NCBI GenBank assembly: GCA_032124675.1
Contig: JAQBDA010000196.1
Coordinates: forward strand, 207 to 64,206
Reading direction: 5' to 3'
DNA length: 64,000 nucleotides
From: Chloroflexota bacterium
GTDB lineage: Bacteria > Chloroflexota > Anaerolineae > Anaerolineales > UBA4823
Positions 1,999 through 59,327 of the stretch are shown here, piece by piece. The translations under genes were made by a program, and so were the position numbers. Positions within the stretch are counted from its first letter, which is position 1. Each line of letters starts with the position of its first letter. Under the pieces are notes generated by a model. It saw nothing but the letters and a program-made list of their open reading frames with translations. It made no database searches and was not told where the DNA came from.

Positions 1999-2841
1999 GT
2001 GGCTGATGGTAAGCAGTCGATTCTGGTTGTTGAAGACGACACTGATGTGGCGGATATGCTGAGTGCATACTTCCACATCCAAGGATATGAGGTCGAAACA
2101 GCCAATTTGGGGGGAGCAGCCCTGGAAGCCTGCCAGATTCACCGTCCCGACCTGATCATCTTGGATATCCGCTTGCCGGATATCGATGGCTACCAGGTAG
2201 CCGGTCAGCTGCGCAGAAGCCGCCGGACCGACGACATCCCGATCATTTTTCTAACTGAGAAACGCAACCGTGCTGACCGCCTGCAGGGCTTGGAGCTTGG
2301 GGCGGATGATTACATTACTAAGCCTTTTGATATTCAGGAGCTGCGCTTGCGGGTGCGGAATGCGCTGCGCCGCTCTTCCCACGGGACGCTGACCAACCCT
2401 GTAACCCAGCTTCCTGAAGGACAGCTGGTGGACGAGCGGCTGCTGGAACTGCTTGAGAGTGATCGGTGGGCACTGCTGACCGTGAAGCTGGTCAACCTGG
2501 AACATTTCCGTGAAGCGTACGGTTTTGTTGCTTCGGATGACGTTGTTCGGGCTGTCAGCCTGATGATCCAGAATGCTGTCCGTGATCTGGGCAGCCCGAA
2601 TGATTTTATCGGTCAGCTTTCCCTATCACAGTTTATCCTGGTCACCATGCCGGACACATCCGACCAGATAGCTGCCCGGTTGGATGCCCGGCTGGAACAA
2701 TCGCTGGATTATTTTTACCCTCTGAAGGACCGTGAGTCCGACAGAAAGAAGAACAGCCGGCTGAAAATCGTTATCCGGCGGCACCACCCGGCAGATGGTG
2801 TCTTTACCGACCTGTACATGTTGAAACAAAACCTGGTATAG
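1999..2841 (+). CDS. Response regulator: receiver domain plus degenerate GGDEF-like domain
   Basis: REC motifs ILVVEDD, DLIILDIRLPDIDG, DDYITKPF. The C-terminal domain has GGDEF-like architecture (NPVTQLPEG...FREAYGFVASDDVVRAV) but LSLSQF where GGDEF is expected. GTG start. Paralog of 53884..54783. Confidence 0.8.
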   Translation: MADGKQSILVVEDDTDVADMLSAYFHIQGYEVETANLGGAALEACQIHRPDLIILDIRLPDIDGYQVAGQLRRSRRTDDIPIIFLTEKRNRADRLQGLELGADDYITKPFDIQELRLRVRNALRRSSHGTLTNPVTQLPEGQLVDERLLELLESDRWALLTVKLVNLEHFREAYGFVASDDVVRAVSLMIQNAVRDLGSPNDFIGQLSLSQFILVTMPDTSDQIAARLDARLEQSLDYFYPLKDRESDRKKNSRLKIVIRRHHPADGVFTDLYMLKQNLV

Positions 2842-2865: not shown

Positions 2866-3633
2866 ATGCGAACGACGATCGTCATACCGACCTACAACGA
2901 GGCGGAGAACCTGCCCAAGCTGGCAGCTGCAATATTCGAGCTGCCCCTTAACGATCTCCATTTAATGGTAGTCGATGATAACAGCCCGGACGGCACAGGC
3001 GAGCTGGCAGATGAGCTGGCTGACCGCTACCCTTCTCGCATGAGCGTGCTGCACCGCCCTGGCAAGATGGGGCTGGGCACTGCTTACATCCAGGGTTTCA
3101 TCCGGGCACTCTCAACGGGTGCCGAGGCTGTTGGACAGATGGATGCCGATTTTTCCCACCCCCCGGAGAAGCTGCTCGAGCTGCACGAGACCCTGGGATC
3201 CTGTGATGTAGCGATGGGCTCGAGGTACGTCCCCGGTGGTGCGGTAGACGAGCGCTGGCCGGCTTGGCGGAAGGGGCTGTCCAGCTTTGGCAACCTATAC
3301 GCCAGGACGATCCTGCGCATGCCCATCCTTGATGCAACCGGAGGCTTCCGGTTATGGCGCAAGGAGACTTTATCCGGGATGCCGCTCGACCGGGTGCGTT
3401 CTAACGGCTACGCCTTTCAAGTCGAGATGGCCTATATCGCATTCCGGCTCGGCTATACTTTCACTGAAGTGCCGATTTATTTTGCTGACCGCCGCTGGGG
3501 GCAATCGAAGATGTCTTTCCGCATTCAGCGTGAGGCTGCGGTAAGGGTATGGCAGCTGCCTGTCGAATACCGGGACCTGACCCACCAGGCGCCGGTCGGT
3601 TCCTCATCCACAGTCTACGATAACGCCAGGTGA
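2866..3633 (+). CDS. GT2 polyprenol-phosphate mannosyltransferase (Ppm1/DPM1-like)
   Basis: IVIPTYNEAENL, MVVDDNSPDGTGE, GLGTAYIQGF, QMDADFSHPP are classic for this family. Confidence 0.85.
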   Translation: MRTTIVIPTYNEAENLPKLAAAIFELPLNDLHLMVVDDNSPDGTGELADELADRYPSRMSVLHRPGKMGLGTAYIQGFIRALSTGAEAVGQMDADFSHPPEKLLELHETLGSCDVAMGSRYVPGGAVDERWPAWRKGLSSFGNLYARTILRMPILDATGGFRLWRKETLSGMPLDRVRSNGYAFQVEMAYIAFRLGYTFTEVPIYFADRRWGQSKMSFRIQREAAVRVWQLPVEYRDLTHQAPVGSSSTVYDNAR

Positions 3634-45505: not shown

Positions 45506-45520
45506 TTTTGCAACGCTATA

Positions 45521-45550
45521 AGTATACTCTCAGAAAGTACCGCCTGTCAA
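45521..45550 (-). promoter_or_regulatory. Candidate promoter of the riboswitch-thiamine salvage operon
   Basis: Minus strand: TTGACA (45550-45545), 18 nt, TATACT (45526-45521). Confidence 0.45.
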
Positions 45551-45604: not shown

Positions 45605-46393
45605 CTAGCGGATGCGGCGCTTCCATTCATCCTTCAACTGAAGCTGCTTCGGGCTTTCGCCTGAACTCAGGCTCAGAAAGTCGGTCAGCAATCGGTTGAA
45701 TTTGCTGGGTTCGTCCAGCATGGGAAAGCGACCTGACCCGTCCAGGATGATCCAGTGGGTGTTCTCACCCCATTGTGCAACCTCATCCAGCTCGGGAGGA
45801 TTGACAGCCGGGTCATTTTTACCGTGGACGAGCAGTACCGGTCTTGTGGAACGGTCCGGCAGGGTGGGCAGGTCTATTTCCTGGATATCATCCAGTGAGG
45901 CTGAAACAGCTTTGGGGTCGCTCTTCCCCGCTTCCGACCAGGCTGCCTCGGTCGTGGGGCTGCGCCCTAACAGCCAGTCTGCCAGTTCGACCGGTTCTGA
46001 GGAACGCAAGCGCGAATTGACCGCGTTGATATGGTGTGGGTAGCCGACTGCCAAAATGCGGTCAACCGCTTCAGGATAGCGCTGGGTATAAATCAGTCCG
46101 GTTACTGCACCCAGACCATGACCGATGATAGCGATCTTGTTGATCCCCATGGCATCCATGAATTCTTCCAACAGCATGGCTTGCTGATTAATTGAGTAGT
46201 AGGCGGGATTCTTGGCTGTGTCACCGAAACCCCACAGGTCGATTGCATACGTGCGGAAAGACAGGGATGCAGCCTGCATGGTTGATATCCAATAACGCCA
46301 TGAACCAACCCAATCGTGAAGGAAGAGCAGCGGACGGCCGCGCCCAAGCACCTCATAATGTATGATTTCATTGTGCAGGATGACAGCGCTCAT
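45605..46393 (-). CDS. Alpha/beta-hydrolase-fold protein lacking the catalytic Ser and His (probable pseudoenzyme)
   Basis: Paralog of 56868..57665. The nucleophile elbow reads IIGHGLGA (GGT Gly where Ser is expected). The His position reads SGRFPMLDEP (CGC Arg), against SGHFIMLDEP in the paralog. Asp is retained (VHGKNDP). Confidence 0.8.
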   Translation of the reverse strand: MSAVILHNEIIHYEVLGRGRPLLFLHDWVGSWRYWISTMQAASLSFRTYAIDLWGFGDTAKNPAYYSINQQAMLLEEFMDAMGINKIAIIGHGLGAVTGLIYTQRYPEAVDRILAVGYPHHINAVNSRLRSSEPVELADWLLGRSPTTEAAWSEAGKSDPKAVSASLDDIQEIDLPTLPDRSTRPVLLVHGKNDPAVNPPELDEVAQWGENTHWIILDGSGRFPMLDEPSKFNRLLTDFLSLSSGESPKQLQLKDEWKRRIR

Positions 46394-46443
46394 GCGGTTC
46401 GAGAGGCCGTGTTCTATCGAACAGGCTCCCCCTCACAGTCTGG

Positions 46444-46821
46444 CTAACTACCCTTATTTTCGGCCAGGATGGCGTTTACGCGTTCGGTCAATTGGTCAGG
46501 AGCGAAAGGCTTCAATATGTATTCTATGGCTCCGGCCTCCAGCCCGGTCTGGACCTCTTTCTCCTGCCCCTTCGCAGATAAGAATACAACTGGGATGTGC
46601 CTAGTCGTTTCATCGGTTTTAATCTTTTCACAGGCCTCGTAACCCGTCATGCGCGGCATTCGTACGTCGAGCAAGATCAGGTCTGGTGAGAGTTCGCGGG
46701 CTTTTTCATATGCTTCCTCACCATTTGCCGTAGCGGTGACTTCATGCCCGGCAAAACTGAGTGTGAAATTGATCAGATCTCGGATATCGCGTTCGTCTTC
46801 AGCAATTAATATTCTTGCCAT
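46444..46821 (-). CDS. Single-domain CheY-like response regulator
   Basis: ILIAEDE, DLILLDVRMPRMTG, LSAKG, ILKPF. Starts 9 nt after the kinase stop. Confidence 0.9.
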   Translation of the reverse strand: MARILIAEDERDIRDLINFTLSFAGHEVTATANGEEAYEKARELSPDLILLDVRMPRMTGYEACEKIKTDETTRHIPVVFLSAKGQEKEVQTGLEAGAIEYILKPFAPDQLTERVNAILAENKGS

Positions 46822-46830
46822 AATACCTCA

Positions 46831-49800
46831 TCATTTTTCTGGATTGTAGACCGGCAGCGTAAATGAGAAGGTGCTGCCTTCACCAGGTACGCCGCTGCTT
46901 TCCAGCCAGATCTTCCCATCGTGCATGTCTACCAGGTGCTTGACGATCGATAACCCAAGCCCCGTACCAGAGGTCGCCAATACAAAAGGATGCTCGCCGC
47001 GGTAAAACCGCTCGAATACTCGCGGCTGTAAATCAAGCGGGATGCCGATACCGGTATCCTGAATATCGATCTGGACGTCGTCACCAGCCCGCCGCGTGCG
47101 CACCAGGATGCGACCACCTTCTGCCGTATAGCAGTAAGCATTTTCCAGCAGGTTCTCAATGATACGACGCACCTGTTCCGGATCACCCAGCACCCTGGGC
47201 AGTTTACGGGGGATATCAGTTTCGATCTGCATCGGTTTATTGTCTTCCTGGGAGCGGCGAGCAAGGTCGGTGGTGGTCTCATGTGCCAGTGGTGCCAGAT
47301 CGAAATGCTGTATAGAGAGGTTAAGCCGTCCGGATTCTATTCTGGAGATATCCAGAAGGTCATTTACAAGGATCGCCAGACGCTCGGAATTGTTCTTGAC
47401 GATCTCTAGGAAGTGCGCCTGCTGGTTGGTGAGCGGACCGGCGGCACCCATGAGCAGGATATCGACGTAGCCTTTTATCGAAGTCATTGGCGTCCGCAGT
47501 TCGTGGCTGACGGTAGCAACAAACTCAGATTTCAGCCGGTCAACCTCCACCTGGTGGGTGATATCCCGGAAGATCGATACCGTGCCGAGGAAATTATCCC
47601 GCAAGCTTACCGGTGCCAGATGGACTGATACCACTCTTCCATTGTCCAGATCGATCTGCTCGGCATATGTATCCCCGTGGGTAAAGGTGTCTGGATTTTG
47701 CGACCACGTTCGGATGGTGCCCATCCAGGCCTTGGCAGCCTTGCCAAAGATCCCGATGAAATGTTCCAGCGATTTGCCGATGACATTCGACCGGTTGAGC
47801 CCCAGGATGTCCTCGGCAGAGTCGTTGAACAGGGTGATCCTCATCGTCTCATCCGTAACCAGGACACCATCCGCCACATCTTCTAGCATCGCTTTCGTGC
47901 GCTGAGTCTCGATCTGCTGGCTTCTCACCATATTGCCAAGGTCTTCCGCCTGGTCGCGGATCAGCCGGTACAGCTCGGCGTTGTTCACCGCGATAGCTAC
48001 CTGGTTCGCAGCCGCCTGTACCATGTCTAATTGGTCCATTGAGAAATGGTCCACCCTGCGATGGAAGAACAGCAGCGTGCCCAGGGAGACACCACCGATC
48101 AACAGCGGCACACCGATAGCACTGCGATACTCGACGGTGCTGTTGGGCAGCTGCACCCATCTTGGGTCATCCCTGACATCTGGGATGAGAACAGGTTTGC
48201 GCTGCTGGATGATCCAACCTGCCAATCCCTCGTCCGGGTCTAGCGAGGTAAAGAATTCATCCGTAGTAAGCGCGGTCTGGTAGCCGACTGAGGCCAGGTG
48301 ATGCAGCTTCTTCTCCCCGGTGCGGGCGAGCAGCACGGTGATGTGCTCTGCATCGATGATCTGGTTGAGCACCTTCAGGGTGCGAGTGAGCACTTGTTCC
48401 AGGTCCAGGCTGGCGGAAAGCTCGGTGATCAGCCGCAGCAGGGTTTCGGTGCGCTGATGAGCGCGCGCCAGCTGCTCTGTGCGTTCGCGCACGCGCTGGT
48501 CGAGTTCATTCGTCAGGCTGCTTGTCTCTGCATACAGGCGACCGTTCTGGATGGCGATGGCCGCCTGGTTGCTGATAGTTTTTGCCAGCCCGACTTCATC
48601 ACCGGTGTAATGGTATGGTTGCTCCGAATGTACCAGGAGGATGCCGTGCAGGTCGCTTCCTGTAGCCAGCGACAGCGCCAGCAGGGACTGCGTGCCGATC
48701 TCGTCCAGATACTCCTTGAGAGGTGCCAGCTCTTCTTCCGAGCTAACGTCCTCGCAGTAAAAGACACCCAGGGTCTGCCGCAGGCGCTCGAATATCGGGG
48801 CATCAGGAATTGTGCGTGGTATGGTCACGTCTCGCGGGGGGAGCTCGGCTTTCAATACTGCCTTTCCCGATGTATCGAACATAACCGCTGAGACAGCAGT
48901 GCAGTTGAGTGTTTCGATGAGCTCCTGGAGTATGATTGACAGCAGATGGTCTGGATCGAGGGAACCGCTCAATTGGGTGGAGAAGCGGTTGAGCATTTCC
49001 AGGCGCTGCGAACGCTGGTCGAGGTCCGCGGCTCGGGATACGATCTGCTGGTAGAGGTTTGCATTTTCCAGGGCAACGGCCGCCTGTCCTGCAAAAGCGA
49101 TGGCAATCTGGATATGCTCGGCACTGTAAAAGTCTTCCTCGTCCTTTTCCAGAGCGATAACACCGATTACCTCACCGCCTGCGACAAGCGGGAGTCCCAG
49201 CCAGGAGGGGTTTGGGTTTTCCACCAGGGACGGGAAACGAGGGTCGTTTCGTACATCTCCGACATAGATCGCCTGGCAGGTATCTATCATCTCACGCAGC
49301 AAGAGGCTGTCTTCGATCGAGATCGAGAGCCCGGTGCGGACATCGCTATCAGCAAATCCGCGCGTGCCATGCACGAACATCTGGTCAGCCTGGCGCAGCC
49401 ACAGCGTGCCGGTATTGAATGGCAGAATAGCCTCCAGTTGGTCCAGCAATGAGCCAACCAGTTCCTCTGGCTGAAGGTTGGAGGAGATGATTGCCGCTGC
49501 TCCGGTCAGTGCCTGAAGCTGGTTGGCGCGCAGCTCTGCTGCCCGGAACAACCGTGAATACTCCAGGTTCAGCGCGGTTTGCTGGGTCAGGGAGGTCACA
49601 AGCGCCTGGGCATCGATTGAGAAGGCTTCCGGAACCTTGAAATTCTCGACCACCAGCACGCCTAAAGGATCGGTTCCCGGCGCTTTCTGCAGCGGAACGG
49701 CCATACTGGAGACCGGCAGCAAGCCATCGGTGGCGTCATGATAATTGAGCAGCATATCCGAGGTGAGGTTGTATAAACTGGGGAAATTCACTTCTTCCAC

Positions 49801-52800
49801 CCGTATAGGCTGGTTCTTGGCGAACGCTTTGCCAGGCAGGGCTTCTCCGGGCTGGTAGTGAATCTGCATGATCTTTTCCTGGACCACATACCCCGCGGCC
49901 GCCTGTGGTATGAGCAGTTCTTTCTTCGGGTCCCAGATCACCACCAGGCTGGCCTGGGCTAACGGCAGGACATGCAGAGCGCTCTCAACAAGTGTTTGCA
50001 AGATCCGTTCAGGCTCCAGGTTGCTCAGCTGGCGGTTGAAGTCCAGCAGCAGGTTCACTTCAGCCAGGTGACGGCTGATCTCCAGGAGCAGGTTCAAGTT
50101 CTGCAGCGTGATGGCGACATTCCGAGCCAGCAGAGAGAAAAGCTGTTCATCCTCGGCTGAAAATGGCGCCAGAGGTTTCTGGCTGATTGCCAAAATTGCT
50201 GAGTCCAGCCTTGCTCCGATAAAGATCGGTATGCAGATGAAGGATTTTGCCTCCAGGGTGTGCAGCAGTGGAGAAGCAGACCAATCGGAATCTGTCTCCA
50301 GGCGGGAGACCAGGATTTGCTCGCCGCTTTGCAGGGTGTGCAGCAGCGGGTTGCGCTGTCCGATGAGCGCGTCGATCTGGATATTGCCCGGCACTCGCCC
50401 AAGACTGTGCAGTAGATGTGGTCCAAGGTTCCCGGGCTCGACGATCAGGGCAATATCCATGTCCATCCGGGTTAATATCTCTCGCCCGAAGACCATCAAG
50501 ACACTGGAACGGTCGCCCTGGCGGCTGACGATCTCGGAGATATCCATGCCGGAACGGATGCGAGCCGCTCGCTGGCTGAGTTGCTGGACGGCGATTGTCT
50601 GCTCCAGGTCTTTATGCATCAAGATTGGAAGGTGGCTGTGTGCTGTAAGCACAGCCTGCTCAGCTCGGACAAGGTCTTCTTGAATATGCTCTGCACGGGA
50701 CTTCAGCCCGTGAATATTCCGGTGGCTAGTAATGACGTAAGAAGCCTGCTGGACGAAGATATCGAGCGATTCCAAGGTCTGAAGATCAGGGCGCAGGTGA
50801 TCGCGCGGTTCCTGCAGGGTGATAATACCCAATGGCTGCTCGTCGTGGTCTGTCATTGGGATGAAAAGCAGGTCTCCCGGCTGCCAGACATAGCCAGATG
50901 CTGCCTTATCTGCGCCTTTATGTGGTGCTGTGGGGGATTTTTCAACAGGAACGAAGGTCGCTTTCCCCAGTGCGTACTCTGGCAAAATCAGGTCGCTATA
51001 GCTGGCCCATGATACAGGTGCTCTTCCTTCTTCTGGGGCGGAGCCCCGGCTGCCTTCAACTCCGGCTGAGGAGATCAGCTCCTCTCGGTCTGGGTCGTAA
51101 TAATATAAGGACACTCGATCGAACAGGGTCGATTCTTGTATCGTCACTGCAATCTTACTGAGGGAGTTTTCCAGCGCTTCAATTGATCCATCATTTAGTG
51201 ATGTGTTCAGCAGCTTGGCCAGCGATTCAACCCGCCGGTTGAGCTGCTCACTCTGCTGGACTCGTTCCTGGTAGCGGTAAGCGTTGCCAAGTGCAACCGC
51301 GGCCTGCAACGCCAGCGCCTCACAGATATCCATCGCAGTCTGATCGAACAGGCGGGGTGTTTTCGAATGTAGGTGGATCAGCCCGGCAGTGTTACCCTGG
51401 TAGGCAATCGGTACGATGAGTGATGCACGGATATCCCTGTGGGGAGGTGGGCGGGAAGCTTCTTCATCACCGGTTAGATCAGCCGTCTCTGGTTTGTAAT
51501 CATCGCAGATCAGCGCCTCTCCGCTTTGCAGAACGCGCAACTCCAGAGAGTGCATGCTCTCAGGAAGTGGATCTCCAATCTGCAGCAGTATTCCAGGCCA
51601 GGGCATTGGTTGATCGTCGCTTTCCGGCACGGTCAGATCATCCCCATCATTATCGAAGAGAACGATGTTGCCGCAATCGGCATGCGTGGTCTGCCGCACT
51701 TCATCATACACTTGCTGAAGAATTTTATCGAGGTCAAGGTTGGTATTGAGCTCTCTGCTAAGGCGCGTTAACGAGGTGAGCTGGTCGACCCGCTGGCGCA
51801 GGGATTCATCCGTTTGGGTATACAGGGCGGCAGATTCGATCAGGCTTGCAAGCTGCCCGCAGGCAGTGATGACCGTCTGCACATCGCTGTGGGCGAAGAA
51901 ATGCGGCTGGTAGCTGCCCATCAAAAGCTCCCCAATCCCCCGGTCTCGAACGACCAATGGTGCGATGATGGCAGATTTCAAGCCCAGGCTGAGTAGCAGC
52001 GGGTGATACAGACGTGGTAGACGTAGATCATCCTGAATGTCGTCGCTGAATAGATAGTTCTGCGAACGGGCAACGCTCTGGGAAAATTCCGGGTCCTCTG
52101 ATGATATTTCCCCCATCCGGCTGGCAAATTCTGGTGAGATGCCAAATAATGAAGGTTTGTGGAGACGCAGCTCGCCGCGCTCCTGATCGAAGAGCAGCAC
52201 CCCGACCTTGTCGGCGTTCAGCAGTCGACCAAGATCTTGAAGGGAATATTTCAAGACCTCGTCCATTGTGGCAGATGACCCGGTCAGGCTGGCGATGCGG
52301 CGGAGCGTTTCGGCACGCTGTGCCCGGCGGTCCGATTGGTGGATCAACTCGGCGTTCTCAACAATTGGACCGGTCTGACCGGAGATAATCTCAAGCAGCC
52401 GTATATCATCCGGATCGAATGGGGTTTTATCCAGTTTATCGCCCACCAGGATATAGCCGAGGCTTTTACCGCTGGAGGTCAACGGCATCAGAACCATCTG
52501 CGTGATTCCGGCTGCAACAGCCAGATTATCGAACCCAAAAGCCTGCAGCTTGGGATCGGAAGCTGCCTGGTGAGAAATGATTGTTTCCCCTGACAGCCAC
52601 AGCTCCTCTGCCGGTGTTCCTGGTTTTATCACCGTGGTGGCCCATTCGATCACGTCTGCATGCAGCCCCATGAAGGGGTGCTGCCCCTCCAAAGTGTGGC
52701 GGAATTCATCGTACAGGATAAAGCCAAGGAAATTGACATCGATCAGCGGTGCAATGCTTTCGATGAGGTGCAAGAACAGGTTTTTTACATCTCGGCCGGT

Positions 52801-53844
52801 GCCAACTGCTTTGGCAAGATCGGCCAATCCGGCCAGTTCTTTTCCTCGCAGTTGTTCCTCTCTATATAGCAGTGCATTTTTAAGGGCGCTCGACGCTGGA
52901 CCGGATAAGATTTGCAGGATTTCCAGGTCATTCTGGCTGTAAGCTTCTTGGGACAGCGATCTGAGTTCAAGCGTGCCGATTAACTCTCCAGCATTGACCA
53001 GCGGAACGCCGATGAATGATTGTGCAGGCAGGGCGTTCGGGTCTGGGTTTGATACACCGGCAGTAACCCCAATTGAGTCCAGCATTATCACCGGATTGCG
53101 TTTTTCAAGCAGTTGCTCAGAAAATGCTCGAGAGCCTGGTTCATTGATATGGACTTCTAAAGCCCCTCCCCTGGTCTCCGTCATGCTGGCCAGCCTGTAT
53201 ACGGTCAGCTGAAGTCTGTCTGGATCATATAAAGTTACCTCGGCGCTGTCGTACGCGAGCAGGGTTTGGATCTTCTCCAGGATTGCCTTGATTGTGGTCT
53301 CGATATCCAGGCTGGCGGCCATCGCTTGCCCCAGCTCGTTCAGAAGCGAGACCGCACTGCGAGCGTTGTGGGAGTTCTCTTCCTGACCGGCATGCCCGTT
53401 TTTTAGTTCTAACAATGGCTGCACAGGCTGGAATGCGAGCAGATTGGCTTTGTTTTCCCCGTATGGAATGGAGTAAGTCCTGATCTGGACGGTATGCCCG
53501 TTCAAGTGAAGCCGATGGTCACCAGCAATCGAACAGATCTCGAGGAAGGCATCGCTGGGTCTGAATTTGCGGCTGAGGTCTTCGATCGAGGGCAGCTCAT
53601 CCCAGGCATCCAGGTATTCTCGTGCACGGCTGTTGAGATAGGCGACCCGCCCTCCTGCCTGGACGATTAAAACCCCTTCTTCCGTCTGGTCTGGCTCATC
53701 GAATTGGGGCAAAACGGGTGCGGTACTCGAGGTGCCTGGCTGGGTCCGCTGTACCCTGCGTAGCAGAACCAGAGTCAGCAGCGCGGCCGACAAGCCAAGT
53801 ATCACGAAAATGGTACCGAGAATTGAAAAATCTATCTGTGCCAT
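46831..53844 (-). CDS. Giant (2337 aa) membrane-anchored sensor histidine kinase: ~10 GAF-like modules, PAS, HisKA, HATPase_c
   Basis: N-terminal TM (ILGTIFVILGLSAALLTLVLL). Recurrent GAF-type starts: L..L...L....D.......L......L.AD...V.L.D. A PAS module (MLEDVADGVLVTDETMRITLFNDSAEDILG). H-box SHELRTPMTSIKGY, N-box ENLLENAYCYT, G1 DTGIGI, G2 GTGLGLSIV. Confidence 0.9.
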   Translation of the reverse strand: MAQIDFSILGTIFVILGLSAALLTLVLLRRVQRTQPGTSSTAPVLPQFDEPDQTEEGVLIVQAGGRVAYLNSRAREYLDAWDELPSIEDLSRKFRPSDAFLEICSIAGDHRLHLNGHTVQIRTYSIPYGENKANLLAFQPVQPLLELKNGHAGQEENSHNARSAVSLLNELGQAMAASLDIETTIKAILEKIQTLLAYDSAEVTLYDPDRLQLTVYRLASMTETRGGALEVHINEPGSRAFSEQLLEKRNPVIMLDSIGVTAGVSNPDPNALPAQSFIGVPLVNAGELIGTLELRSLSQEAYSQNDLEILQILSGPASSALKNALLYREEQLRGKELAGLADLAKAVGTGRDVKNLFLHLIESIAPLIDVNFLGFILYDEFRHTLEGQHPFMGLHADVIEWATTVIKPGTPAEELWLSGETIISHQAASDPKLQAFGFDNLAVAAGITQMVLMPLTSSGKSLGYILVGDKLDKTPFDPDDIRLLEIISGQTGPIVENAELIHQSDRRAQRAETLRRIASLTGSSATMDEVLKYSLQDLGRLLNADKVGVLLFDQERGELRLHKPSLFGISPEFASRMGEISSEDPEFSQSVARSQNYLFSDDIQDDLRLPRLYHPLLLSLGLKSAIIAPLVVRDRGIGELLMGSYQPHFFAHSDVQTVITACGQLASLIESAALYTQTDESLRQRVDQLTSLTRLSRELNTNLDLDKILQQVYDEVRQTTHADCGNIVLFDNDGDDLTVPESDDQPMPWPGILLQIGDPLPESMHSLELRVLQSGEALICDDYKPETADLTGDEEASRPPPHRDIRASLIVPIAYQGNTAGLIHLHSKTPRLFDQTAMDICEALALQAAVALGNAYRYQERVQQSEQLNRRVESLAKLLNTSLNDGSIEALENSLSKIAVTIQESTLFDRVSLYYYDPDREELISSAGVEGSRGSAPEEGRAPVSWASYSDLILPEYALGKATFVPVEKSPTAPHKGADKAASGYVWQPGDLLFIPMTDHDEQPLGIITLQEPRDHLRPDLQTLESLDIFVQQASYVITSHRNIHGLKSRAEHIQEDLVRAEQAVLTAHSHLPILMHKDLEQTIAVQQLSQRAARIRSGMDISEIVSRQGDRSSVLMVFGREILTRMDMDIALIVEPGNLGPHLLHSLGRVPGNIQIDALIGQRNPLLHTLQSGEQILVSRLETDSDWSASPLLHTLEAKSFICIPIFIGARLDSAILAISQKPLAPFSAEDEQLFSLLARNVAITLQNLNLLLEISRHLAEVNLLLDFNRQLSNLEPERILQTLVESALHVLPLAQASLVVIWDPKKELLIPQAAAGYVVQEKIMQIHYQPGEALPGKAFAKNQPIRVEEVNFPSLYNLTSDMLLNYHDATDGLLPVSSMAVPLQKAPGTDPLGVLVVENFKVPEAFSIDAQALVTSLTQQTALNLEYSRLFRAAELRANQLQALTGAAAIISSNLQPEELVGSLLDQLEAILPFNTGTLWLRQADQMFVHGTRGFADSDVRTGLSISIEDSLLLREMIDTCQAIYVGDVRNDPRFPSLVENPNPSWLGLPLVAGGEVIGVIALEKDEEDFYSAEHIQIAIAFAGQAAVALENANLYQQIVSRAADLDQRSQRLEMLNRFSTQLSGSLDPDHLLSIILQELIETLNCTAVSAVMFDTSGKAVLKAELPPRDVTIPRTIPDAPIFERLRQTLGVFYCEDVSSEEELAPLKEYLDEIGTQSLLALSLATGSDLHGILLVHSEQPYHYTGDEVGLAKTISNQAAIAIQNGRLYAETSSLTNELDQRVRERTEQLARAHQRTETLLRLITELSASLDLEQVLTRTLKVLNQIIDAEHITVLLARTGEKKLHHLASVGYQTALTTDEFFTSLDPDEGLAGWIIQQRKPVLIPDVRDDPRWVQLPNSTVEYRSAIGVPLLIGGVSLGTLLFFHRRVDHFSMDQLDMVQAAANQVAIAVNNAELYRLIRDQAEDLGNMVRSQQIETQRTKAMLEDVADGVLVTDETMRITLFNDSAEDILGLNRSNVIGKSLEHFIGIFGKAAKAWMGTIRTWSQNPDTFTHGDTYAEQIDLDNGRVVSVHLAPVSLRDNFLGTVSIFRDITHQVEVDRLKSEFVATVSHELRTPMTSIKGYVDILLMGAAGPLTNQQAHFLEIVKNNSERLAILVNDLLDISRIESGRLNLSIQHFDLAPLAHETTTDLARRSQEDNKPMQIETDIPRKLPRVLGDPEQVRRIIENLLENAYCYTAEGGRILVRTRRAGDDVQIDIQDTGIGIPLDLQPRVFERFYRGEHPFVLATSGTGLGLSIVKHLVDMHDGKIWLESSGVPGEGSTFSFTLPVYNPEK

Positions 53845-53883
53845 GACGTTCCAGGTCTGTACCTTAGCCGACTGATTTTGGGT

Positions 53884-54783
53884 TTATATATCCGACCGCC
53901 TGGCCTCTGCGGCGATTTCGGTTATCTCGCGAATATCAGCAAAATCATATTGGGTTGGCGAAACAACCCCTACCGACATCGACATTAATGGAGTCTTGAT
54001 CTGCTGTCCGGATTCATTGATTGTGACGACATAGCCCTGTTCACGGTCGATAAAGCTGTAATGGGCGAGCACATCTTCTGAGAAGCGTGTTTTCAGAGAC
54101 TGCCTGATCTTCGGGGCGTTTTCGTCGCTGGTTATGATGATGAAGCTGTCTCCCCCGGCATGACCGATAAAATCATCCTGAGTGCCCTGGTCGTCGATCA
54201 CTTCACCGATCATCATGGCGGTGAAGCGCAGCACGTCGTCGCCTGCGACGAAGCCATACACATCCTTGAAGGTATCAAAGTGATTGATGCGCACATCCAT
54301 CAGCGCCCATGCTGGCTGCCGGATGATGCGCCGCAGCTGTTCTTCGATCAGTCTGCCGGATGGCAGTCCGGAACGGGGGTCGGTTAAGCTCTGCTGTTCC
54401 GCCCGGGAGATCGCCCGCTGGACGCGTAGTTTCAGCTCTTCGATATCAAATGGTTTGGTGATATAGTCATCCGCTCCCAGCTCAAGACCCTGCAGCTTGT
54501 CACTGCGTTCATCTTTCTGGGTGAGAAAGATGATCGGCACGTGGCTGGTACGTGTGTTCGTCCGTAAAATTCGGCATACTTCGAAGCCGTCGATATCCGG
54601 CAGCATAATATCGAGCACGATCAGGTGCGGCAGGCTCTGGCGGGTTTTCTCCAGCGCGTCATTGCCGCGCGGTGCTGTCTCTACTTCATAGTTGTGCCCG
54701 GTGAAGTAGATCTTCAGCATATTCAATATGTCAAAATCATCTTCGACGATCAATAGGCGAGGTTTACCCATCATGACCTCCAT
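53884..54783 (-). CDS. Response regulator: receiver plus degenerate GGDEF (GGDSF) domain
   Basis: LLIVEDD, HLIVLDIMLPDIDG, DDYITKPF. The GGDEF-like domain has HAGGDSFIII and no RxxD I-site. The likely true start is ATG 54771 (GGAGG 5 nt upstream). Paralog of 1999..2841. Confidence 0.85.
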   Translation of the reverse strand: MEVMMGKPRLLIVEDDFDILNMLKIYFTGHNYEVETAPRGNDALEKTRQSLPHLIVLDIMLPDIDGFEVCRILRTNTRTSHVPIIFLTQKDERSDKLQGLELGADDYITKPFDIEELKLRVQRAISRAEQQSLTDPRSGLPSGRLIEEQLRRIIRQPAWALMDVRINHFDTFKDVYGFVAGDDVLRFTAMMIGEVIDDQGTQDDFIGHAGGDSFIIITSDENAPKIRQSLKTRFSEDVLAHYSFIDREQGYVVTINESGQQIKTPLMSMSVGVVSPTQYDFADIREITEIAAEARRSDI

Positions 54784-54872
54784 GTAGTCCGTGAGAACCG
54801 TTTACAGTGCTCGTTCGATTCATGCCGTGGTACCGGTCCATTCCGATAATGATTGCTTCTGCCGCCTGGCGG

Positions 54873-56165
54873 TCACCAGGATTCAACTGCCAGTTCCTCG
54901 ATCCTGGGATATAAACGTGGGTGGAGGTTGGCATAAGATAGCTGGTGGTGGTCGCTATCCTCGAAACGAATATCGTGCTCAATTACCCGGCGGTCTCTAG
55001 TGGCATATAACACAACATCGGATTCGATCGTTCGCGCCGGAAAGATGATCAGACCCGCACCAATCCGGGTGTTATGACCGATGCAGCCGCCTAACACAGG
55101 TCGATTGGAATAGTTCAGCTGGGAGTTGCCATCTCTTGCGCGGATAGGGGTCAAGACCAGATTGAAATCTGTGAAGGTTGTCCCGGCGCCAATGAAAGTA
55201 TTGCGACCGACCACGCACATCTGCAAACAGGTATTCTGAGCGACCATGCTGTTTTCCATCAGTGTTGTCATAAACAGAGATGACCGGAAGGGGAGAAAAG
55301 ATCCATCCCCGACGACGGACAGCATGAGCTGGCAGTCCTGGGAGATATTGACATTGCTGCCGATAATACAGTTTTCGATGACAGCCCCGGCGTTGATGGT
55401 GACGTTGTCACCGATGATGGTCGGGCCGTGAATGGTGGCATGCGGATCGATGATGCAGTTGCGGCCGACATGTACCAGCTCCGAGCTTTCCAGCACCTGC
55501 TTCCCCTCCAGCATGGCTTTGGCAAGGATCTTCAGCTTGTAAAAGGGGAAATTCTCCAGCTTCTCCTCGAACCGGGCGCCGCGGGTGAACTGTCCGAAGA
55601 CGATATCGGCGATAAAGATATGCACCCATGAATCAATGGCGATCAGGCTGCGCCGCGGCACTTGAAAAGTCAGGTCACCCTGTTCATACGCCATGTAGGT
55701 AGGGACGTGATAATATCCAGCCTCCGTAGAATCCAGGTCGATCACCACCGGCTCGGCGGACATGGGATCGATCTCGGAATGGATGCCTTCCGGGAAGTAC
55801 CACAATTCGCTAAGATACAGGTCGCCATCTGGCGTGTAGGATGTGGATAGGGGGAGAGCGTGTTCTCTGAATGCTGGGTCGTTTGCAGAGCAGGCCGCCT
55901 GGCAGGGTCGCCGGCGCAGCTTTGCTTCAGCAAGGAATGCTTCCATATAATCGTTGTCGAAATATAGGTTGTCCCTGTAGAGCAGGCATTCTTCTTCTAC
56001 CCTGGGGAATTTAGCACCGTAAGGCAGCTCCATCTCCCGGTGTGTGTGGGGAGCGAGTATGTCCCTTTGAGCCAGCCATAGGGGTTTATTCTGGATGCGT
56101 AAATCCCGCGCACGCTCGTTGAACGGGTATATATGGCGTGGGTCTTGCAGGATGATCTTTATCAT
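54873..56165 (-). CDS. Hexapeptide-repeat (left-handed beta-helix) protein with an unknown ~230-aa N-terminal domain
   Basis: C-terminal half: VGRNCIIDPHATIHGPTIIGDNVTINAGAVIENCIIGSNVNISQDC...VVGRNTFIGAGTTF...IGHNTRIGAGLIIFP. I could not find a nucleotidyltransferase G-x-G-x-R signature. Confidence 0.6.
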   Translation of the reverse strand: MIKIILQDPRHIYPFNERARDLRIQNKPLWLAQRDILAPHTHREMELPYGAKFPRVEEECLLYRDNLYFDNDYMEAFLAEAKLRRRPCQAACSANDPAFREHALPLSTSYTPDGDLYLSELWYFPEGIHSEIDPMSAEPVVIDLDSTEAGYYHVPTYMAYEQGDLTFQVPRRSLIAIDSWVHIFIADIVFGQFTRGARFEEKLENFPFYKLKILAKAMLEGKQVLESSELVHVGRNCIIDPHATIHGPTIIGDNVTINAGAVIENCIIGSNVNISQDCQLMLSVVGDGSFLPFRSSLFMTTLMENSMVAQNTCLQMCVVGRNTFIGAGTTFTDFNLVLTPIRARDGNSQLNYSNRPVLGGCIGHNTRIGAGLIIFPARTIESDVVLYATRDRRVIEHDIRFEDSDHHQLSYANLHPRLYPRIEELAVESW

Positions 56166-56241
56166 AGCGCTGGACCGGAACCTGTCTGCTCCATTGGATA
56201 TGGATCTTCTGGCGGCACAGGATTAATCGTTGATGCCGCGG

Positions 56242-56871
56242 TCATTCTATTGGGACCTTCTCAATACTTATCGCACAGCTCGGATCGCCTTTGGCGACGC
56301 ATAGGGTCTCCTGGACATTAAAGAATTTGCCTCCGCTTACCCAATTGAGAGCCTCTTGCAGTGTCCCGACTGCCAGATGGCAGGCAGGATTGTCCTCATG
56401 GCGATGGTAGCAGAGCGGGCAGTTTGTCATATGCCAGTAGAAGCTTTCTTCGTCCTCCTCCAGCCGGACCTGCTGATCAGTATTCTGGTTGAATATCCCG
56501 GCAAAAATTCTGCCCCCCTGGCGGATTTTTGTATTTTGTGGCAGCAATCGAAAATCCTGGTCCGAGATATCGATGAGCTGACCAAATTGGCGCAGGCCAT
56601 ATTTGAAACATGCACGTCCTGACCGCACCGCCAGTCCTTGACCACCCCGCGCTCCATATACTGCCTCCAGGGAAGACATCATCTTGCTGATCTGGGTGTA
56701 CGGCACATCGCGATCCAAATTATCCGGCGGAAAGTTCTGCACCAGGTGCACCAGATCGGCATGCTTGAGCACGGCCTCAAGCCCGGAGTCTCCGAGAACT
56801 TCCTCCAAACCCAGGAGGATGATCTGTCCCAGCATATTTGGGTAATACATCTCAGGGGTTTGTCCGGTCAT
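56242..56871 (-). CDS. V4R domain protein (paralog of 1353..1988)
   Basis: FPPDNLDRDV, YGARGGQGLAVRSGRA, CPLCYHRHEDNPACH...ETLCVAKGDPSCA. ATGA overlap with the upstream hydrolase gene. Confidence 0.75.
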   Translation of the reverse strand: MTGQTPEMYYPNMLGQIILLGLEEVLGDSGLEAVLKHADLVHLVQNFPPDNLDRDVPYTQISKMMSSLEAVYGARGGQGLAVRSGRACFKYGLRQFGQLIDISDQDFRLLPQNTKIRQGGRIFAGIFNQNTDQQVRLEEDEESFYWHMTNCPLCYHRHEDNPACHLAVGTLQEALNWVSGGKFFNVQETLCVAKGDPSCAISIEKVPIE

Positions 56872-57665
56872 TGGGTTTGTATCTCATCATCCAGAAAGTC
56901 CCGTAAAGTTTTCATGAAACGTTGAGGCTCGTCCAACATAATAAAATGCCCGGATGCTGGGAACAGCTCGATGCGGGCGTGGCTGATGCCTTCATGCATG
57001 GGCATCCACTGCTTGCCGCTGACGACAATGTCTTTCCTGCCGTACATCCCCATCGCGGGGATCTTAATTTTGGTTAGATGCGGTCGCAGGTCGGTGCTAC
57101 GCAGGGATGCGATGCTCAGCAGGAACGATTCGAGCGACACCCGCGAGAGATCATGATCCATCATCGCAGGCCAGCGCTTATCTCGAGTGTAGAACGGTGC
57201 CAATGCCCGGTAGCTGAGCTGGAACGCCCATAGATTGTTGTACACCAGCCAGGCTACCGTCCTGTAACCAAATAGTTTTAACAGAATGGAGAGCGATGAG
57301 CCTACTATCGGGGAACCGATCACAGCCACTTTGCCAACCCGGTCTGGATGGTGGATCGCGACTGACAACCCGACTGTCCCCCCCATGCTGTGACCGACCA
57401 GCGGAGCGCGGGCGATGCCCAACTGCTCCATAAATTGGTTTACCATGCTTACAAAAACTTGGACTGAATAATTCTCCAGTTTCTTTCCAGATTCACCAAA
57501 ACCCCAAAAATCTAATGCATATGTCCGGTAATGCTGGCCGAGATAGGCCATGGTCTCCTGCCACAGGCCCCATGACCCTAGCCAGCCATGCAGCAAAATA
57601 ACCGGGTCCCCCCTCCCGTAAACTTCGTAATGGACGATCCCTTGATCGGTAGTAATTGATGACAC
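56868..57665 (-). CDS. Alpha/beta hydrolase with an intact Ser-Asp-His triad
   Basis: HGWLGSW, nucleophile elbow GHSMGG, GRKDIVV, SGHFIMLDEP. Confidence 0.85.
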   Translation of the reverse strand: MSSITTDQGIVHYEVYGRGDPVILLHGWLGSWGLWQETMAYLGQHYRTYALDFWGFGESGKKLENYSVQVFVSMVNQFMEQLGIARAPLVGHSMGGTVGLSVAIHHPDRVGKVAVIGSPIVGSSLSILLKLFGYRTVAWLVYNNLWAFQLSYRALAPFYTRDKRWPAMMDHDLSRVSLESFLLSIASLRSTDLRPHLTKIKIPAMGMYGRKDIVVSGKQWMPMHEGISHARIELFPASGHFIMLDEPQRFMKTLRDFLDDEIQTQ

Positions 57666-57688
57666 GGCAATTGAACTATCTTCGTCAC

Positions 57689-58228
57689 TTATGCCTCGCC
57701 CAAATCCATCTCAGCCAATATGCTGTAGAGCAGTTCTAACAAGACCGACTTGACATTCTCTTTATCGACTGCTACACAAGGCAGCAATTTGACATTCGAG
57801 TCCAGTCGCAAAGCGATCCGCATGTCCTCCGAATCCCAGGCATCTTCTTTGTCTTGTTTATTGGCTGCAACGACATACGGGGTGGGGGCGTAGGCGCGGA
57901 ATGTTTCCAGGATGCTGCGCGCTTCCCGAAACGTCTCGGGTCGTGTGCTGTCAACCATTACCACGAACCCCAACATGCCTTCCGAGAGAATTTCCCACAT
58001 AAAGTCGAACCGTTTCTGACCTGGAGTGCCGAATAGATACAGCACCAGGTCGTCATCCACTGTAATGCGTCCAAAATCCATCGCTACGGTGGTGGTCTCT
58101 TTGACCCGTTCGGCCACTGAGGAAATCTTTCGCTCCGTGGAAACGACATCGATCTCACTTACAGAGCGGATAAACTCGGTTTTGCCAGCATTGAAAGGTC
58201 CTGTGACCACCATTTTAACTGTTTGCAT
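57689..58228 (-). CDS. MglA/CvnD-like small Ras-superfamily GTPase (COG2229-type ATP/GTP-binding protein)
   Basis: G1 GPFNAGKT; switch I Thr run (ETTTVAMDFG); G3 FGTPGQ, with the canonical Asp replaced as in MglA-like proteins; G4 NKQD. 179 aa. Confidence 0.85.
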   Translation of the reverse strand: MQTVKMVVTGPFNAGKTEFIRSVSEIDVVSTERKISSVAERVKETTTVAMDFGRITVDDDLVLYLFGTPGQKRFDFMWEILSEGMLGFVVMVDSTRPETFREARSILETFRAYAPTPYVVAANKQDKEDAWDSEDMRIALRLDSNVKLLPCVAVDKENVKSVLLELLYSILAEMDLGEA

Positions 58229-58291
58229 AGTTAGCTACCCTTACACTTGTGTAAAGAAGAATCGATGATGTTGATTGGGCCATGATATCTC

Positions 58292-59113
58292 TCATAATGA
58301 GCGGATGCGACTGATGAGCCTGTTGATCAGTGATTTCTGCTCTTCCGGCGTGCCTTTTTGAACGGCTTGCCGGGAGGGGAGCTGTACGGGGCGCACACCT
58401 TCCGGGCGCACAATATCCACTAGACCGGCTTGCAGCAGGCTGTAAGCGATCCGCCTTATCTCTACCTCATTCAACTTCGTTGCCCGGGCGATCTGGCGCA
58501 TCGAGTTCTTCGGATTGATATAGGAGACAACCCGCCATTCCTCGACGCTGAGATTGAGATTGCGCAGGTTTGCTCCTGGCCGGTCGGTAAATTTCAATGC
58601 CATATCCAGGCTGGGGATTTCGTCCTGCAGCTGCTCCACCTCGCGCATCCGGCGTGTGCCTTCGATGATGATGTTCTCCAGATTGATGCGCACGGTGATT
58701 TTATCGCCGGGAGGCAGCAGGTCGCTTTCAAATCGGAACAGCCCTTCCACCAACGTGAACAAACGGTTGAGAATGGCTATGAAATGGTTCTGTAAACTGA
58801 TCAGGATGTCTTGCTGGCTGATGTAATTGGCGTTGATCAGCAGCAAGCCTAATTCCTTATCGCTCATATGACCAGCGCGCTCTTTGATAATCTTATGCTG
58901 GGCAGCCGACAGCTTTTTCGCTCGGTAAAGGATGGTAGCCAGTGAATTGTCCTCTTCACCCACCCTGGCATACGCCAGTTTGCCCTCTCGAAACGAGACC
59001 TGGATCGCCACATTCTGCCCATCGACGACGAGTGTGCCCGTCTTCTGCGCCAGGTTGATCAAGTTCAACAATTGTGAGACGGTGAAATCTCTAAGATTGC
59101 CTTTCAATGCCAT
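58292..59113 (-). CDS. DUF4388 domain protein with a C-terminal winged-helix (DUF742/CvnC-like) segment
   Basis: The N-terminus MALKGNLRDFTVSQLLNLINLAQKTGTLVV is the DUF4388 hallmark. The C-terminus LSVEEWRVVSYINPKNSMRQIARATKLNEVEIRRIAYSLLQAGLV looks like a wHTH. Confidence 0.7.
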   Translation of the reverse strand: MALKGNLRDFTVSQLLNLINLAQKTGTLVVDGQNVAIQVSFREGKLAYARVGEEDNSLATILYRAKKLSAAQHKIIKERAGHMSDKELGLLLINANYISQQDILISLQNHFIAILNRLFTLVEGLFRFESDLLPPGDKITVRINLENIIIEGTRRMREVEQLQDEIPSLDMALKFTDRPGANLRNLNLSVEEWRVVSYINPKNSMRQIARATKLNEVEIRRIAYSLLQAGLVDIVRPEGVRPVQLPSRQAVQKGTPEEQKSLINRLISRIRSL

Positions 59114-59211: not shown

Positions 59212-59240
59212 TTGACACTGCTTCTGCTTGAGTTTATAAT
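59212..59240 (+). promoter_or_regulatory. Consensus promoter of tRNA-Asn
   Basis: TTGACA (59212-59217), 17 nt, TATAAT (59235-59240). The tRNA starts 15 nt downstream of the -10 box. Confidence 0.7.
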
Positions 59241-59254: not shown

Positions 59255-59327
59255 TCCTCGGTAGCTCAATTGGCAGAGCGGGCGGCTGTTAACCGCTAGG
59301 TTCCAGGTTCGAGTCCTGGCCGAGGAG
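59255..59327 (+). tRNA. tRNA-Asn (anticodon GUU)
   Basis: Acceptor TCCTCGG pairs with CCGAGGA. D-arm GCTC-AATTGGCA-GAGC. Anticodon stem-loop GGCGG-CTGTTAA-CCGCT. T-arm CCAGG-TTCGAGT-CCTGG. No encoded CCA. Confidence 0.9.

Follow-up and report, generated by a model that had tools for sequence, protein, structure and literature searches.

A conserved gene cluster of Anaerolineae around a small GTPase that fits MglA Group 5

Small GTPases of the bacterial MglA family carry extra residues, inserted between their motifs G1 and G2, relative to the archaeal and eukaryotic small GTPases, and their groups are told apart by short motifs (PMC4316618): namely, Group 1 has TVPGQ and an intrinsic Arg beside the G2 Thr, while Groups 2–5 have GTPGQ and a Thr in place of the Arg, other Ras proteins having DxxGQ. 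Group 2 is the CvnD type of the conservons, with NxFD as the G4 motif. In Group 5, the usual neighborhood is MglB>PATAN>MglA in Aquificae, Deinococcus-Thermus, cyanobacteria, and Chloroflexi, and the PATAN-MglB gene context is credited in the same paper to Makarova et al. 2006. Table S2 of that 2014 paper lists ANT_06780, a protein of 179 amino acids (aa) from Anaerolinea thermophila, as MglA Group 5 with the neighborhood <MglA><PATAN>, and also an orphan MglB elsewhere in the genome. Here, we describe nine co-directional genes around a 179-aa Ras-like GTPase in a 64,000-nucleotide (nt) stretch of DNA from a Chloroflexota bacterium of the class Anaerolineae (assembly GCA_032124675.1, contig JAQBDA010000196.1); the whole of this stretch is called the window below.

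In a previous reading of the window from its sequence alone, the nine genes were taken as a conservon-type or conservon-like system. The minus-strand open reading frames (ORFs) were found exactly at the coordinates given in that sequence-only reading, and the gaps along the cluster from 5′ to 3′ (63, 23, −4, 76, 89, 39, 9, and 50 nt) reproduce its range of −4 to 89 nt; also, every one of its domain calls has Pfam support (Table 1), and the motifs that it quoted (GPFNAGKT, FGTPGQ, NKQD, and GGDSF) are all present in the sequences. In terms of what the cluster is, we consider it slightly better than an even chance that the MglA Group 5 module (MglB/Roadblock, PATAN, and GTPase) has been elaborated in the nine genes in a way specific to Anaerolineae. 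The PATAN-MglA(-MglB) core was already catalogued in 2014, and the extended architecture appears to be new. The previous reading would have counted an identical architecture already described under an existing name against itself; because the PATAN-MglA Group 5 core has been named since 2014, that has come about in part, whereas the extended nine-gene architecture has no name. Its further statement that it knew of no characterized system with the same composition agrees with our survey: in the openly searchable literature, we found no such system, and neither the extended architecture nor an association of V4R, GTPase, and Roadblock genes has been described there. In a published table on Anaerolinea thermolimosa, the same gene run is given merely as flanking genes.

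The GTPase, its PATAN neighbor, and their conservation

As had been proposed from its motifs, the 179-aa protein belongs to the Ras superfamily, being an MglA/CvnD-like GTPase, and matches the corresponding Pfam and NCBIfam profiles (Table 1). Loci fetched for comparison carry L numbers (L002, for example), and 84 of them, from related genomes, gave together with the window 85 GTPase sequences. Throughout these orthologs, G1 reads GPF[NS][AS]GKT and the G2 region xTTVAMD; the two Thr residues of G2 without Arg, the G3 motif FGTPGQ, and the G4 motif NKQD are each found in 85/85 sequences. In Ras, about 18 residues separate G1 from G2, and the window GTPase has 29 between the GKT of G1 and the Thr of G2, in keeping with the insertion of the MglA family. 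Since the protein combines GTPGQ and Thr-Thr without Arg, as in Groups 2–5, with NKQD, which follows the [NT]KxD pattern of Group 5, and since it comes from a taxon represented in Group 5 (Chloroflexi), has a PATAN neighbor, and has a listed counterpart in ANT_06780, it fits MglA Group 5 by motif and gene context. Group 1 was rejected on the basis of GTPGQ and Thr in the places of TVPGQ and the Arg finger. Matches to the MglA structures in PDB are weak (4e-5).

When the GTPase was searched against a collection with one genome per species, at least 588 matching stretches were obtained, and the best 80, nearly all labelled Anaerolineae, Anaerolineales, or Chloroflexota, were kept; over these best 80 of at least 588 matches, the GTPase identity is 83–94%. 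The nine window proteins were then compared with the 84 loci by tblastn. A PATAN gene was located directly upstream of the GTPase gene at every locus with enough upstream DNA (78/78). Accessory genes were counted over the 62 loci that reach 6 kb or more downstream; in these, the GTPase gene is followed by the hydrolase in 50, V4R in 45, the hexapeptide protein in 47, a receiver protein with a degenerate GGDEF domain (hereafter, the REC-GGDEF protein) in 49, and the GAF kinase in 48, and 37 loci have all five together. The upstream neighbor of the window cluster, a GAF-GAF-GGDEF gene, recurs in just 2/60 loci. The block is thus kept in most relatives while the flanks vary, which argues that the cluster is beyond chance, and the co-conservation that the sequence-only reading had called for is seen across Anaerolineae. 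Accessory genes are nonetheless individually missing from some loci and hence none of them is obligatory; the invariant unit is the PATAN protein and the GTPase, and the other genes are a frequently retained accessory set.

In one relative, L031, ten co-directional genes encode, in this order, Roadblock, V4R, REC-GGDEF, a family-2 glycosyltransferase (GT2), PATAN, GTPase, V4R, REC-GGDEF, kinase, and CheY proteins, bounded by unrelated UbiA and ThyA/DHFR genes. This locus has neither a hydrolase nor a hexapeptide gene, and its signaling set is complete. A layer of hydrolase and pseudo-hydrolase for ligand handling, which had been read as hard-wired into the system, is therefore accessory instead.

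As for the protein encoded upstream of the GTPase, the PatA_N model (PF14332) covers residues 4–158, and the protein belongs to the PATAN family with its helical insertion. The AlphaFold model (predicted local distance difference test, pLDDT, 78.7) has the order β-α-β-β-β, four helices at 58–119, β-α, a winged helix at 172–235, and a helix at 256–272; this C-terminal helix is conserved. Of the earlier description as DUF4388 plus a winged helix-turn-helix, the first half is firm, whereas the second is weak by sequence (MarR_2, E 0.007; a marginal MarR match in PDB, E 0.4) and visible in the model. The winged helix and tail are common to the “hypothetical” proteins encoded upstream of the GTPase in Deinococcus (hhalign probability 56–63%). 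Two other assignments of the C-terminal part were rejected: a PatA-type PATAN-REC regulator, because this unit is winged-helix-like and Pfam gave no REC match in it, and homology to DUF742 (CvnC), which has no Pfam match at E ≤ 10 and a probability of 0.2 in hhalign against the DUF742 protein of Streptomyces. Foldseek with the model gave chains of GATOR1/SEAC as the best and only consistent matches (E 4e-3, probability 0.80–0.87, TM score about 0.25). These chains are presumably Nprl2/Nprl3, the longin and winged-helix subunits of the GTPase-activating protein (GAP) for Rag. In hhalign against an alignment of 12 Roadblock sequences, a shallow profile, the result for the PATAN protein was negative (probability 0.5). 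The possible nature of PATAN as a Roadblock/longin-like domain is kept solely as a weak lead from modeling.

The Roadblock block and the accessory proteins

The remark in the sequence-only reading that the expected Roadblock partner is missing is right for the cluster itself, in which none is encoded, but a Roadblock/LC7 gene of MglB type does lie near the other end of the window, amid paralogs of two cluster genes (Table 1). It is followed by the second V4R and second REC-GGDEF genes with spacings of 9–10 nt. A DUF4388-GTPase-Roadblock triad is annotated on a Thermus plasmid, and its Roadblock has 38% identity (6e-24) to that of the window; several Deinococcus plasmids have a hypothetical-GTPase-Roadblock triad. 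In two of them (L095 and L096), the genes after the triad encode a 159-aa protein that no Pfam family matches and an HD-GYP protein, and those before it a PAS histidine kinase (L095) or GGDEF and HD proteins (L096). On the parent contigs, no GTPase gene was found beside the Roadblock block, the upstream gene being a divergent UbiD. In 8/84 related loci, however, the block adjoins PATAN-GTPase, either co-directionally upstream (L025, L029, L031, L033, and L036) or convergently just downstream (L051, L071, and L074). The Roadblock protein of the window is thus the probable cognate regulator of the GTPase, judging from sequence and gene context. Because the block is fused to PATAN-GTPase in these 8/84 loci and V4R and REC-GGDEF paralogs stand beside Roadblock, we conclude that the signaling core comprises Roadblock, PATAN-winged-helix, GTPase, V4R, REC-GGDEF, kinase, and CheY proteins, split here into two blocks 55 kb apart, and that the hydrolase and hexapeptide enzymes are an add-on to it.

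A GT2 gene comes after the Roadblock block in the window and likewise in L031, L051, and L085–L090, and its membership of the signaling system is uncertain. Within 2866–6886 of the window, GT2 is followed by an rRNA adenine dimethylase, a LytR-CpsA-Psr protein, and a Bac_transf sugar transferase, the latter known from the parent contig. This envelope-glycopolymer context might hint at the output or be coincidental. An ORF at 10–681 (+) of 223 aa was set aside as probably spurious; it has no Pfam match and overlaps, on the parent contig, a UbiD-family decarboxylase on the opposite strand.

The function of V4R was called unclear in a 2013 review. Its homology to Bet3 has been published, in a paper without mention of GTPases, and a descent of Bet3, a TRAPP subunit, from V4R has been discussed; operon links of the V4R-GTPase type are not found in a study of Asgard archaea. 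In Deinococcus radiodurans, DR2179 (V4R) and DR_2180 would be adjacent according to the locus tags of two papers. Our AlphaFold model of the stand-alone V4R protein of the cluster, built with 49 sequences, has a pLDDT of 93.3 and a predicted template modeling score (pTM) of 0.90. Over the whole 209 aa, Foldseek matched it with probability 1.00 to H-NOX (1.6e-6), MopR/PoxR (about 3e-5), and Bet3/TRAPPC3 (1.4e-4, 1wc8), and also to other TRAPP-core chains (7b6d_G and 7e8t_C); the protein hence models as a member of the H-NOX/MopR/Bet3-TRAPPC3 superfold. Its N-terminal half has no Pfam family and belongs, in the model, to the single H-NOX-like fold. C151, C154, C164, C191, and C199 are invariant in the V4R orthologs and E188 nearly so. 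Four of these residues (C164, E188, C191, and C199) fall in the segment aligned to MopR, and a Zn site of four residues is on record for PoxR and for a TRAPPC3 homolog from Asgard archaea; the conserved residues match a predicted MopR-like Zn site. C151 and C154 form an extra CPxC motif.

An exhaustive profile search with V4R gave 1433 representatives; of the best 150, we examined the ten longest for fusions. The only fusions found, all with V4R at the C terminus, are TIR-V4R, Ser/Thr-kinase-TIR-V4R, and CHAT-FHA-V4R (P0410, P0448, P0456, P0467, and P0486); none with Roadblock, longin, GTPase, or PATAN was found among these ten. These partners suggest that V4R of this type is a modular sensor domain. 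In the TIR, kinase-TIR, and CHAT-FHA fusions, V4R appears as the sensor end of effectors typical of conflict/cell-death systems. In Thermus (L092, Thermus thermophilus plasmid pTthSNM1-7b, 5369–7498), furthermore, a protoglobin gene (Pfam 9e-16) follows DUF4388-GTPase-Roadblock in the position that V4R has in Anaerolineae.

Among the two-component genes, the REC-GGDEF protein retains the receiver Asp and Lys. Its GGD[NS]F motif is found in 41/51 orthologs, as GGDSF in the window and GGDNF in most. As compared with an active cyclase, DIDHFK is replaced by RINHFD, the guanine-binding Asn by Lys, and GGEEF by GGDSF, and the Arg of the I-site is lost; GG[DE]EF, the metal-binding Asp, and the guanine-binding Asn/Asp expected of a diguanylate cyclase are thus all absent. 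The degenerate GGDEF domain noted in the previous reading has indeed lost its active-site residues and is, by these substitutions, predicted to be catalytically dead, and the protein, rather than being a cyclase, is a putative adaptor that depends on phosphorylation or a putative binder of nucleotides. The histidine kinase has its sole transmembrane-like segment at residues 8–28, a GAF/PAS array that is cytoplasmic, and the H-box SHELRTP; neither HAMP (by Pfam) nor LPxR (in the last 150 residues) was found. Its size varies, being 2337 aa in the window, 1974 aa in L003, and 769 aa with GAF/PAS in L031. In all loci that show how the cluster ends (L002, L003, L011, L031, L063, and L080), CheY is encoded after the kinase or, in L002, after the REC-GGDEF protein.

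The first α/β-hydrolase has an intact Ser-Asp-His triad with GxSxG, as previously read: the nucleophile elbow GHSMGG is found in 69/69 orthologs, and the Asp and His are conserved. The ATGA coupling reported between this gene and V4R was also observed, the stop of the former overlapping the start of the latter, and an overlap or a gap of at most 4 nt is kept in most orthologs. A specific identity such as RsbQ- or D14-like was rejected, given that the relatives are generic (MhpC/BphD/PcaD, arylesterase, and epoxide hydrolase) and below the NCBIfam cutoffs. The second α/β-fold protein is 30% identical to the first and was rightly described as lacking the triad: the nucleophile is gone by Ser→Gly (GHGLGA), which both visible orthologs share (L002 and L011), and His→Arg (SGRF) is specific to the window. 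This putative pseudo-enzyme is absent from L031 and L063. In the hexapeptide protein, Hexapep matches run from residues 231–282 onward, and matches to the left-handed β-helix of GlmU in PDB are limited to residues 208–293; the C terminus, which follows an N-terminal domain of about 225 aa, is predicted to be a left-handed β-helix of the GlmU/GMPPB/eIF2B type. Between the hexapeptide and REC-GGDEF genes, about one-third of the loci (32/84 matched, 25 of them full-length and the rest partial or weak), not including the window, have an extra gene for a homolog of long-chain acyl-acyl carrier protein (acyl-ACP) reductase (PDB 6jzq, 1.6e-30). In L060 (13268–14362), it encodes a 364-aa homolog of the cyanobacterial long-chain acyl-ACP reductase and of the N-terminal domain of PigE. 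The reductase homolog hints that the enzyme add-on may handle an acyl or aldehyde compound.

Table 1. Features of the window (positions are those of the 64,000-nt stretch)
Feature	Position	Strand	Evidence or remark
DUF4388/PatA_N (PATAN) + winged helix	58292..59113	-	Pfam PF14332 4e-21
Small Ras-like GTPase, 179 aa	57689..58228	-	Pfam ATP_bind_1 2e-19, Ras 1e-9, Arf 5e-9; NCBIfam small_GTP above cutoff
First α/β-hydrolase	56868..57665	-	Pfam Abhydrolase_1 1e-29
Stand-alone V4R protein, 209 aa	56242..56871	-	Pfam V4R 1e-7, above cutoff
Hexapeptide-repeat protein	54873..56165	-	Pfam Hexapep 2e-13, C-terminal half only
REC-GGDEF protein (receiver + degenerate GGDEF)	53884..54783	-	Pfam REC 2e-29, partial GGDEF 9e-11
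Histidine kinase, 2337 aa	46831..53844	-	Pfam about 10 GAF + PAS + HisKA + HATPase_c
CheY-like single receiver	46444..46821	-	Pfam REC 5e-31
Second α/β-fold protein, nucleophile-less	45605..46393	-	Pfam Abhydrolase_1 4e-20
Roadblock/LC7 (MglB-type)	975..1343	+	Pfam Robl_LC7 1e-19
Second V4R protein	1353..1988	+	Pfam V4R 4e-14; 43% identical (2e-61) to V4R at 56242-56871
Second REC-GGDEF protein	1999..2841	+	Pfam REC 4e-30, GGDEF 2e-6; 47% identical (8e-79) to 53884-54783
Family-2 glycosyltransferase (GT2)	2866..3633	+	Pfam Glycos_transf_2 2e-26
tRNA-Asn (GTT)	59255-59329	+	Upstream edge of cluster
GAF-GAF-GGDEF protein	59396-61603	-	Full-scoring GGDEF domain 1e-46; immediately upstream of cluster
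TPP riboswitch	45395-45506	-	Rfam 67 bits; downstream edge of cluster

At the upstream edge, the tRNA-Asn gene sits in a 282-nt gap between the cluster and the GAF-GAF-GGDEF gene and thereby separates the two minus-strand units; a σ70 consensus site with 12/12 matches (TTGACA-17-TATAAT) precedes it at 59212–59240 (+). The GAF-GAF-GGDEF protein is, from its domains, a possible source of cyclic di-GMP (c-di-GMP). At the downstream edge, a promoter-like site with 11/12 matches is located upstream of the thiamine pyrophosphate (TPP) riboswitch (region 45369–45550, −), and a strong hairpin with a T-run at 45369–45393 comes just before the genes for thiamine pyrophosphokinase and an ABC transporter of thiamine type. 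In a scan for consensus matches only, no terminator-like hairpin on the minus strand was found in any of the eight intergenic gaps. Elsewhere in the window, a small signal recognition particle RNA is at 20032–20131 (−) and a tRNA-Sec (TCA anticodon) at 63155–63250 (+), the presence of which implies the synthesis of selenoproteins in the organism.

Explanations of the cluster and their implications

Several points weigh against the cluster being an elaborated Group 5 module. We know of no member of MglA Group 5 that has been studied experimentally, and experimental data on PATAN are limited to cyanobacterial PATAN-REC regulators binding the pilus motor. In the window, the Roadblock gene is 55 kb from the cluster and on the opposite strand. 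Both the family of the first hydrolase and its PDB relatives are generic and give no hint of a substrate, and residues 1–228 of the hexapeptide protein have no Pfam family even at E ≤ 10. The functional steps of the mechanism proposed below are ones that we infer from domain identity and gene context. Further points of this kind are also those that speak for the serious rival, namely, that three unrelated neighbors simply lie side by side: a PATAN-GTPase switch; a metabolic unit of the hydrolase, V4R, the hexapeptide protein, and sometimes the acyl-ACP-reductase homolog; and a two-component system of the REC-GGDEF protein, kinase, CheY, and pseudo-hydrolase. Some loci are indeed partial, with only PATAN-GTPase and no accessory genes in 7/62, the cluster without V4R in 9/62, the kinase absent from L002, and the hydrolase and V4R followed by nothing further in L045, L079, and L083. 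The parts are divided by the 76- and 89-nt gaps and by a weak promoter-like site in the V4R-hexapeptide gap, and all of the 84 comparison loci are from one class, so that shared ancestry inflates the co-occurrence counts. A chance juxtaposition of three units is, nevertheless, unlikely in our estimation: the block is kept while the flanks are shuffled, V4R and REC-GGDEF genes directly follow the GTPase gene in L031 where the enzymes are absent, paralogs of V4R and REC-GGDEF stand beside Roadblock, the known partner family of such GTPases, and sensors, kinases, and c-di-GMP enzymes recur beside the triad in Thermus and Deinococcus.

The conservon interpretation, according to which the cluster is a CvnA-D system with extra layers and thus a membrane heterocomplex of kinase, Roadblock, DUF742 protein, and GTPase, fits the 42% identity (5e-43) of the window GTPase to a Streptomyces conservon GTPase, the xGTPGQ-type G3, the membrane-anchored kinase in the cluster, and the position of the PATAN-winged-helix gene in the slot of DUF742 directly upstream of the GTPase gene. 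The similarity to the Group 5 proteins of Deinococcus/Thermus is, however, equal, and an Anaerolinea protein has already been classed as Group 5. The reference conservon of Streptomyces has the order kinase-Roadblock-DUF742-GTPase with NTFD as G4; in the window, G4 is NKQD (85/85) and not NxFD, no DUF742 was detected (Pfam E ≤ 10; hhalign 0.2), the kinase is not of CvnA type, being without HAMP and LPxR, three receiver proteins are present where conservons have none, and no CvnB-type Roadblock is in the same cluster, the sole one in the window being that at 975–1343. The label of a conservon-type or conservon-like system does not hold, and we regard this interpretation as highly improbable. 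A TRAPP/Ragulator-like arrangement, in which V4R with the Bet3 fold and a Roadblock dimer would form an exchange or GAP platform and V4R would be the core regulator, is also very unlikely. The V4R model does match Bet3/TRAPPC3 and TRAPP-core chains, V4R genes adjoin Roadblock (9 nt) and belong to the GTPase cluster, and the V4R-Bet3 homology is in the literature; but H-NOX and MopR/PoxR match better than Bet3, the Zn site is of MopR type, the fusions are restricted to TIR, CHAT-FHA, and kinase-TIR (in the top 150 representatives), nine loci keep the cluster without V4R, and Thermus has a protoglobin in its place. A broader proposal, that V4R proteins of Anaerolineae are dedicated partners of the GTPase and Roadblock and form with PATAN a bacterial counterpart of the TRAPP and Ragulator/GATOR platforms, strikes us as decidedly unlikely; if true, it would give the first operon-level evidence of the V4R-Bet3 fold with small GTPases before eukaryotes. 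Finally, the module might control polarity, type IV pili, or the choice of division site in filamentous bacteria. This concerns the output only and is compatible with the elaborated Group 5 module. In cyanobacteria, the pilus motor PilB1 is bound by PATAN-REC regulators; genes for PATAN proteins are reported to lie frequently beside those for MglA/MglB homologs, the PATAN protein SgnC of Myxococcus is required for social motility, and PatA is reported to interact with the divisome (PMC7380572). With no pilus, motility, or division gene in or near the cluster (in the window and the inspected loci) and a winged helix instead of a receiver in the PATAN protein, we consider such an output unlikely.

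Taking the cluster as an elaborated Group 5 module, we propose that the membrane-anchored kinase would integrate cytoplasmic signals via its GAF/PAS array and phosphorylate the CheY and REC-GGDEF proteins. The phosphorylated REC-GGDEF proteins may then serve as adaptors that pass the two-component signal on to the cycle of the GTPase, as RomR does for MglA, and the Roadblock dimer would act as a GAP for the GTPase, as MglB does. With their cavity and Zn/Cys site, V4R proteins could sense a small ligand of hydrophobic or redox nature, and these sensors, together with the REC-GGDEF proteins, would shift the GTPase toward its GTP or GDP state. The V4R ligand may be made or removed by the serine hydrolase and the hexapeptide protein, helped by the acyl-ACP-reductase homolog in about one-third of the relatives, and the nucleophile-less hydrolase paralog may bind it. 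In its GTP-bound form, the GTPase would act via the PATAN-winged-helix protein, which might bind DNA or else serve to relocate or engage some target machine.

MglA Group 5 is widespread, occurring in Chloroflexi, Deinococcus-Thermus, Aquificae, cyanobacteria, and some Actinobacteria. The Anaerolineae version is very strongly conserved, and its probable inputs and accessories are encoded alongside, so that candidate partners and suitable assays can readily be picked; it also provides a clean genomic association of a small GTPase, Roadblock, and stand-alone V4R. If V4R regulates the GTPase, the association would bear on the origin of the eukaryotic platforms of GTPase regulators; if V4R is a ligand sensor, the cluster would be a tractable case in which a small molecule controls a bacterial Ras-like switch that is connected to a two-component system.

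Relation to known systems

With the conservons of Streptomyces (CvnA-D) and Mycobacterium MfpB, the cluster has in common a GTPGQ-type GTPase (42% identity), a kinase in the cluster, the Roadblock partner family, and, directly upstream of the GTPase gene, a gene for a small protein that is rich in helices or has a winged helix. It differs in NKQD, the lack of DUF742, a GAF/PAS kinase without HAMP/LPxR, the presence of receivers, and the taxon. With MglA-MglB of Group 1 in Myxococcus/Thermus and its RomR/FrzZ, the common logic is that of a Roadblock-regulated GTPase combined with phosphorelay receivers, whereas TVPGQ and an Arg finger there are replaced by GTPGQ and Thr here and no motility genes are near the cluster.

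As for the single proteins, V4R shares with MopR/PoxR/DmpR, H-NOX, and Bet3/TRAPPC3 the fold over the whole protein and membership of a ligand-cavity family and, with MopR, the Cys/Glu positions of the Zn site; unlike MopR, it is stand-alone with no AAA+ fusion, has the extra CPxC, and is encoded with a GTPase or Roadblock. The REC-GGDEF protein has the architecture of PleD-like proteins, and its best NCBIfam match is the PleD family; it has, however, one receiver, and the metal-binding Asp, guanine-binding Asn, second Glu, and I-site are lost while GGD[NS]F itself is conserved.

Most closely related are the MglA Group 5/PATAN/MglB modules (PMC4316618). The window differs from them in that the Roadblock gene lies apart and has paralogs of V4R and REC-GGDEF as its new neighbors, and in that the hydrolase, V4R, hexapeptide protein, REC-GGDEF protein, GAF kinase, CheY, and pseudo-hydrolase are absent from the neighborhood table of that paper. 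Common to both are GTPGQ, Thr-Thr, and NKxD in a GTPase of about 175–190 aa, PATAN beside the GTPase, and a Roadblock of the same type, which is 38% identical to that of the Thermus triad.

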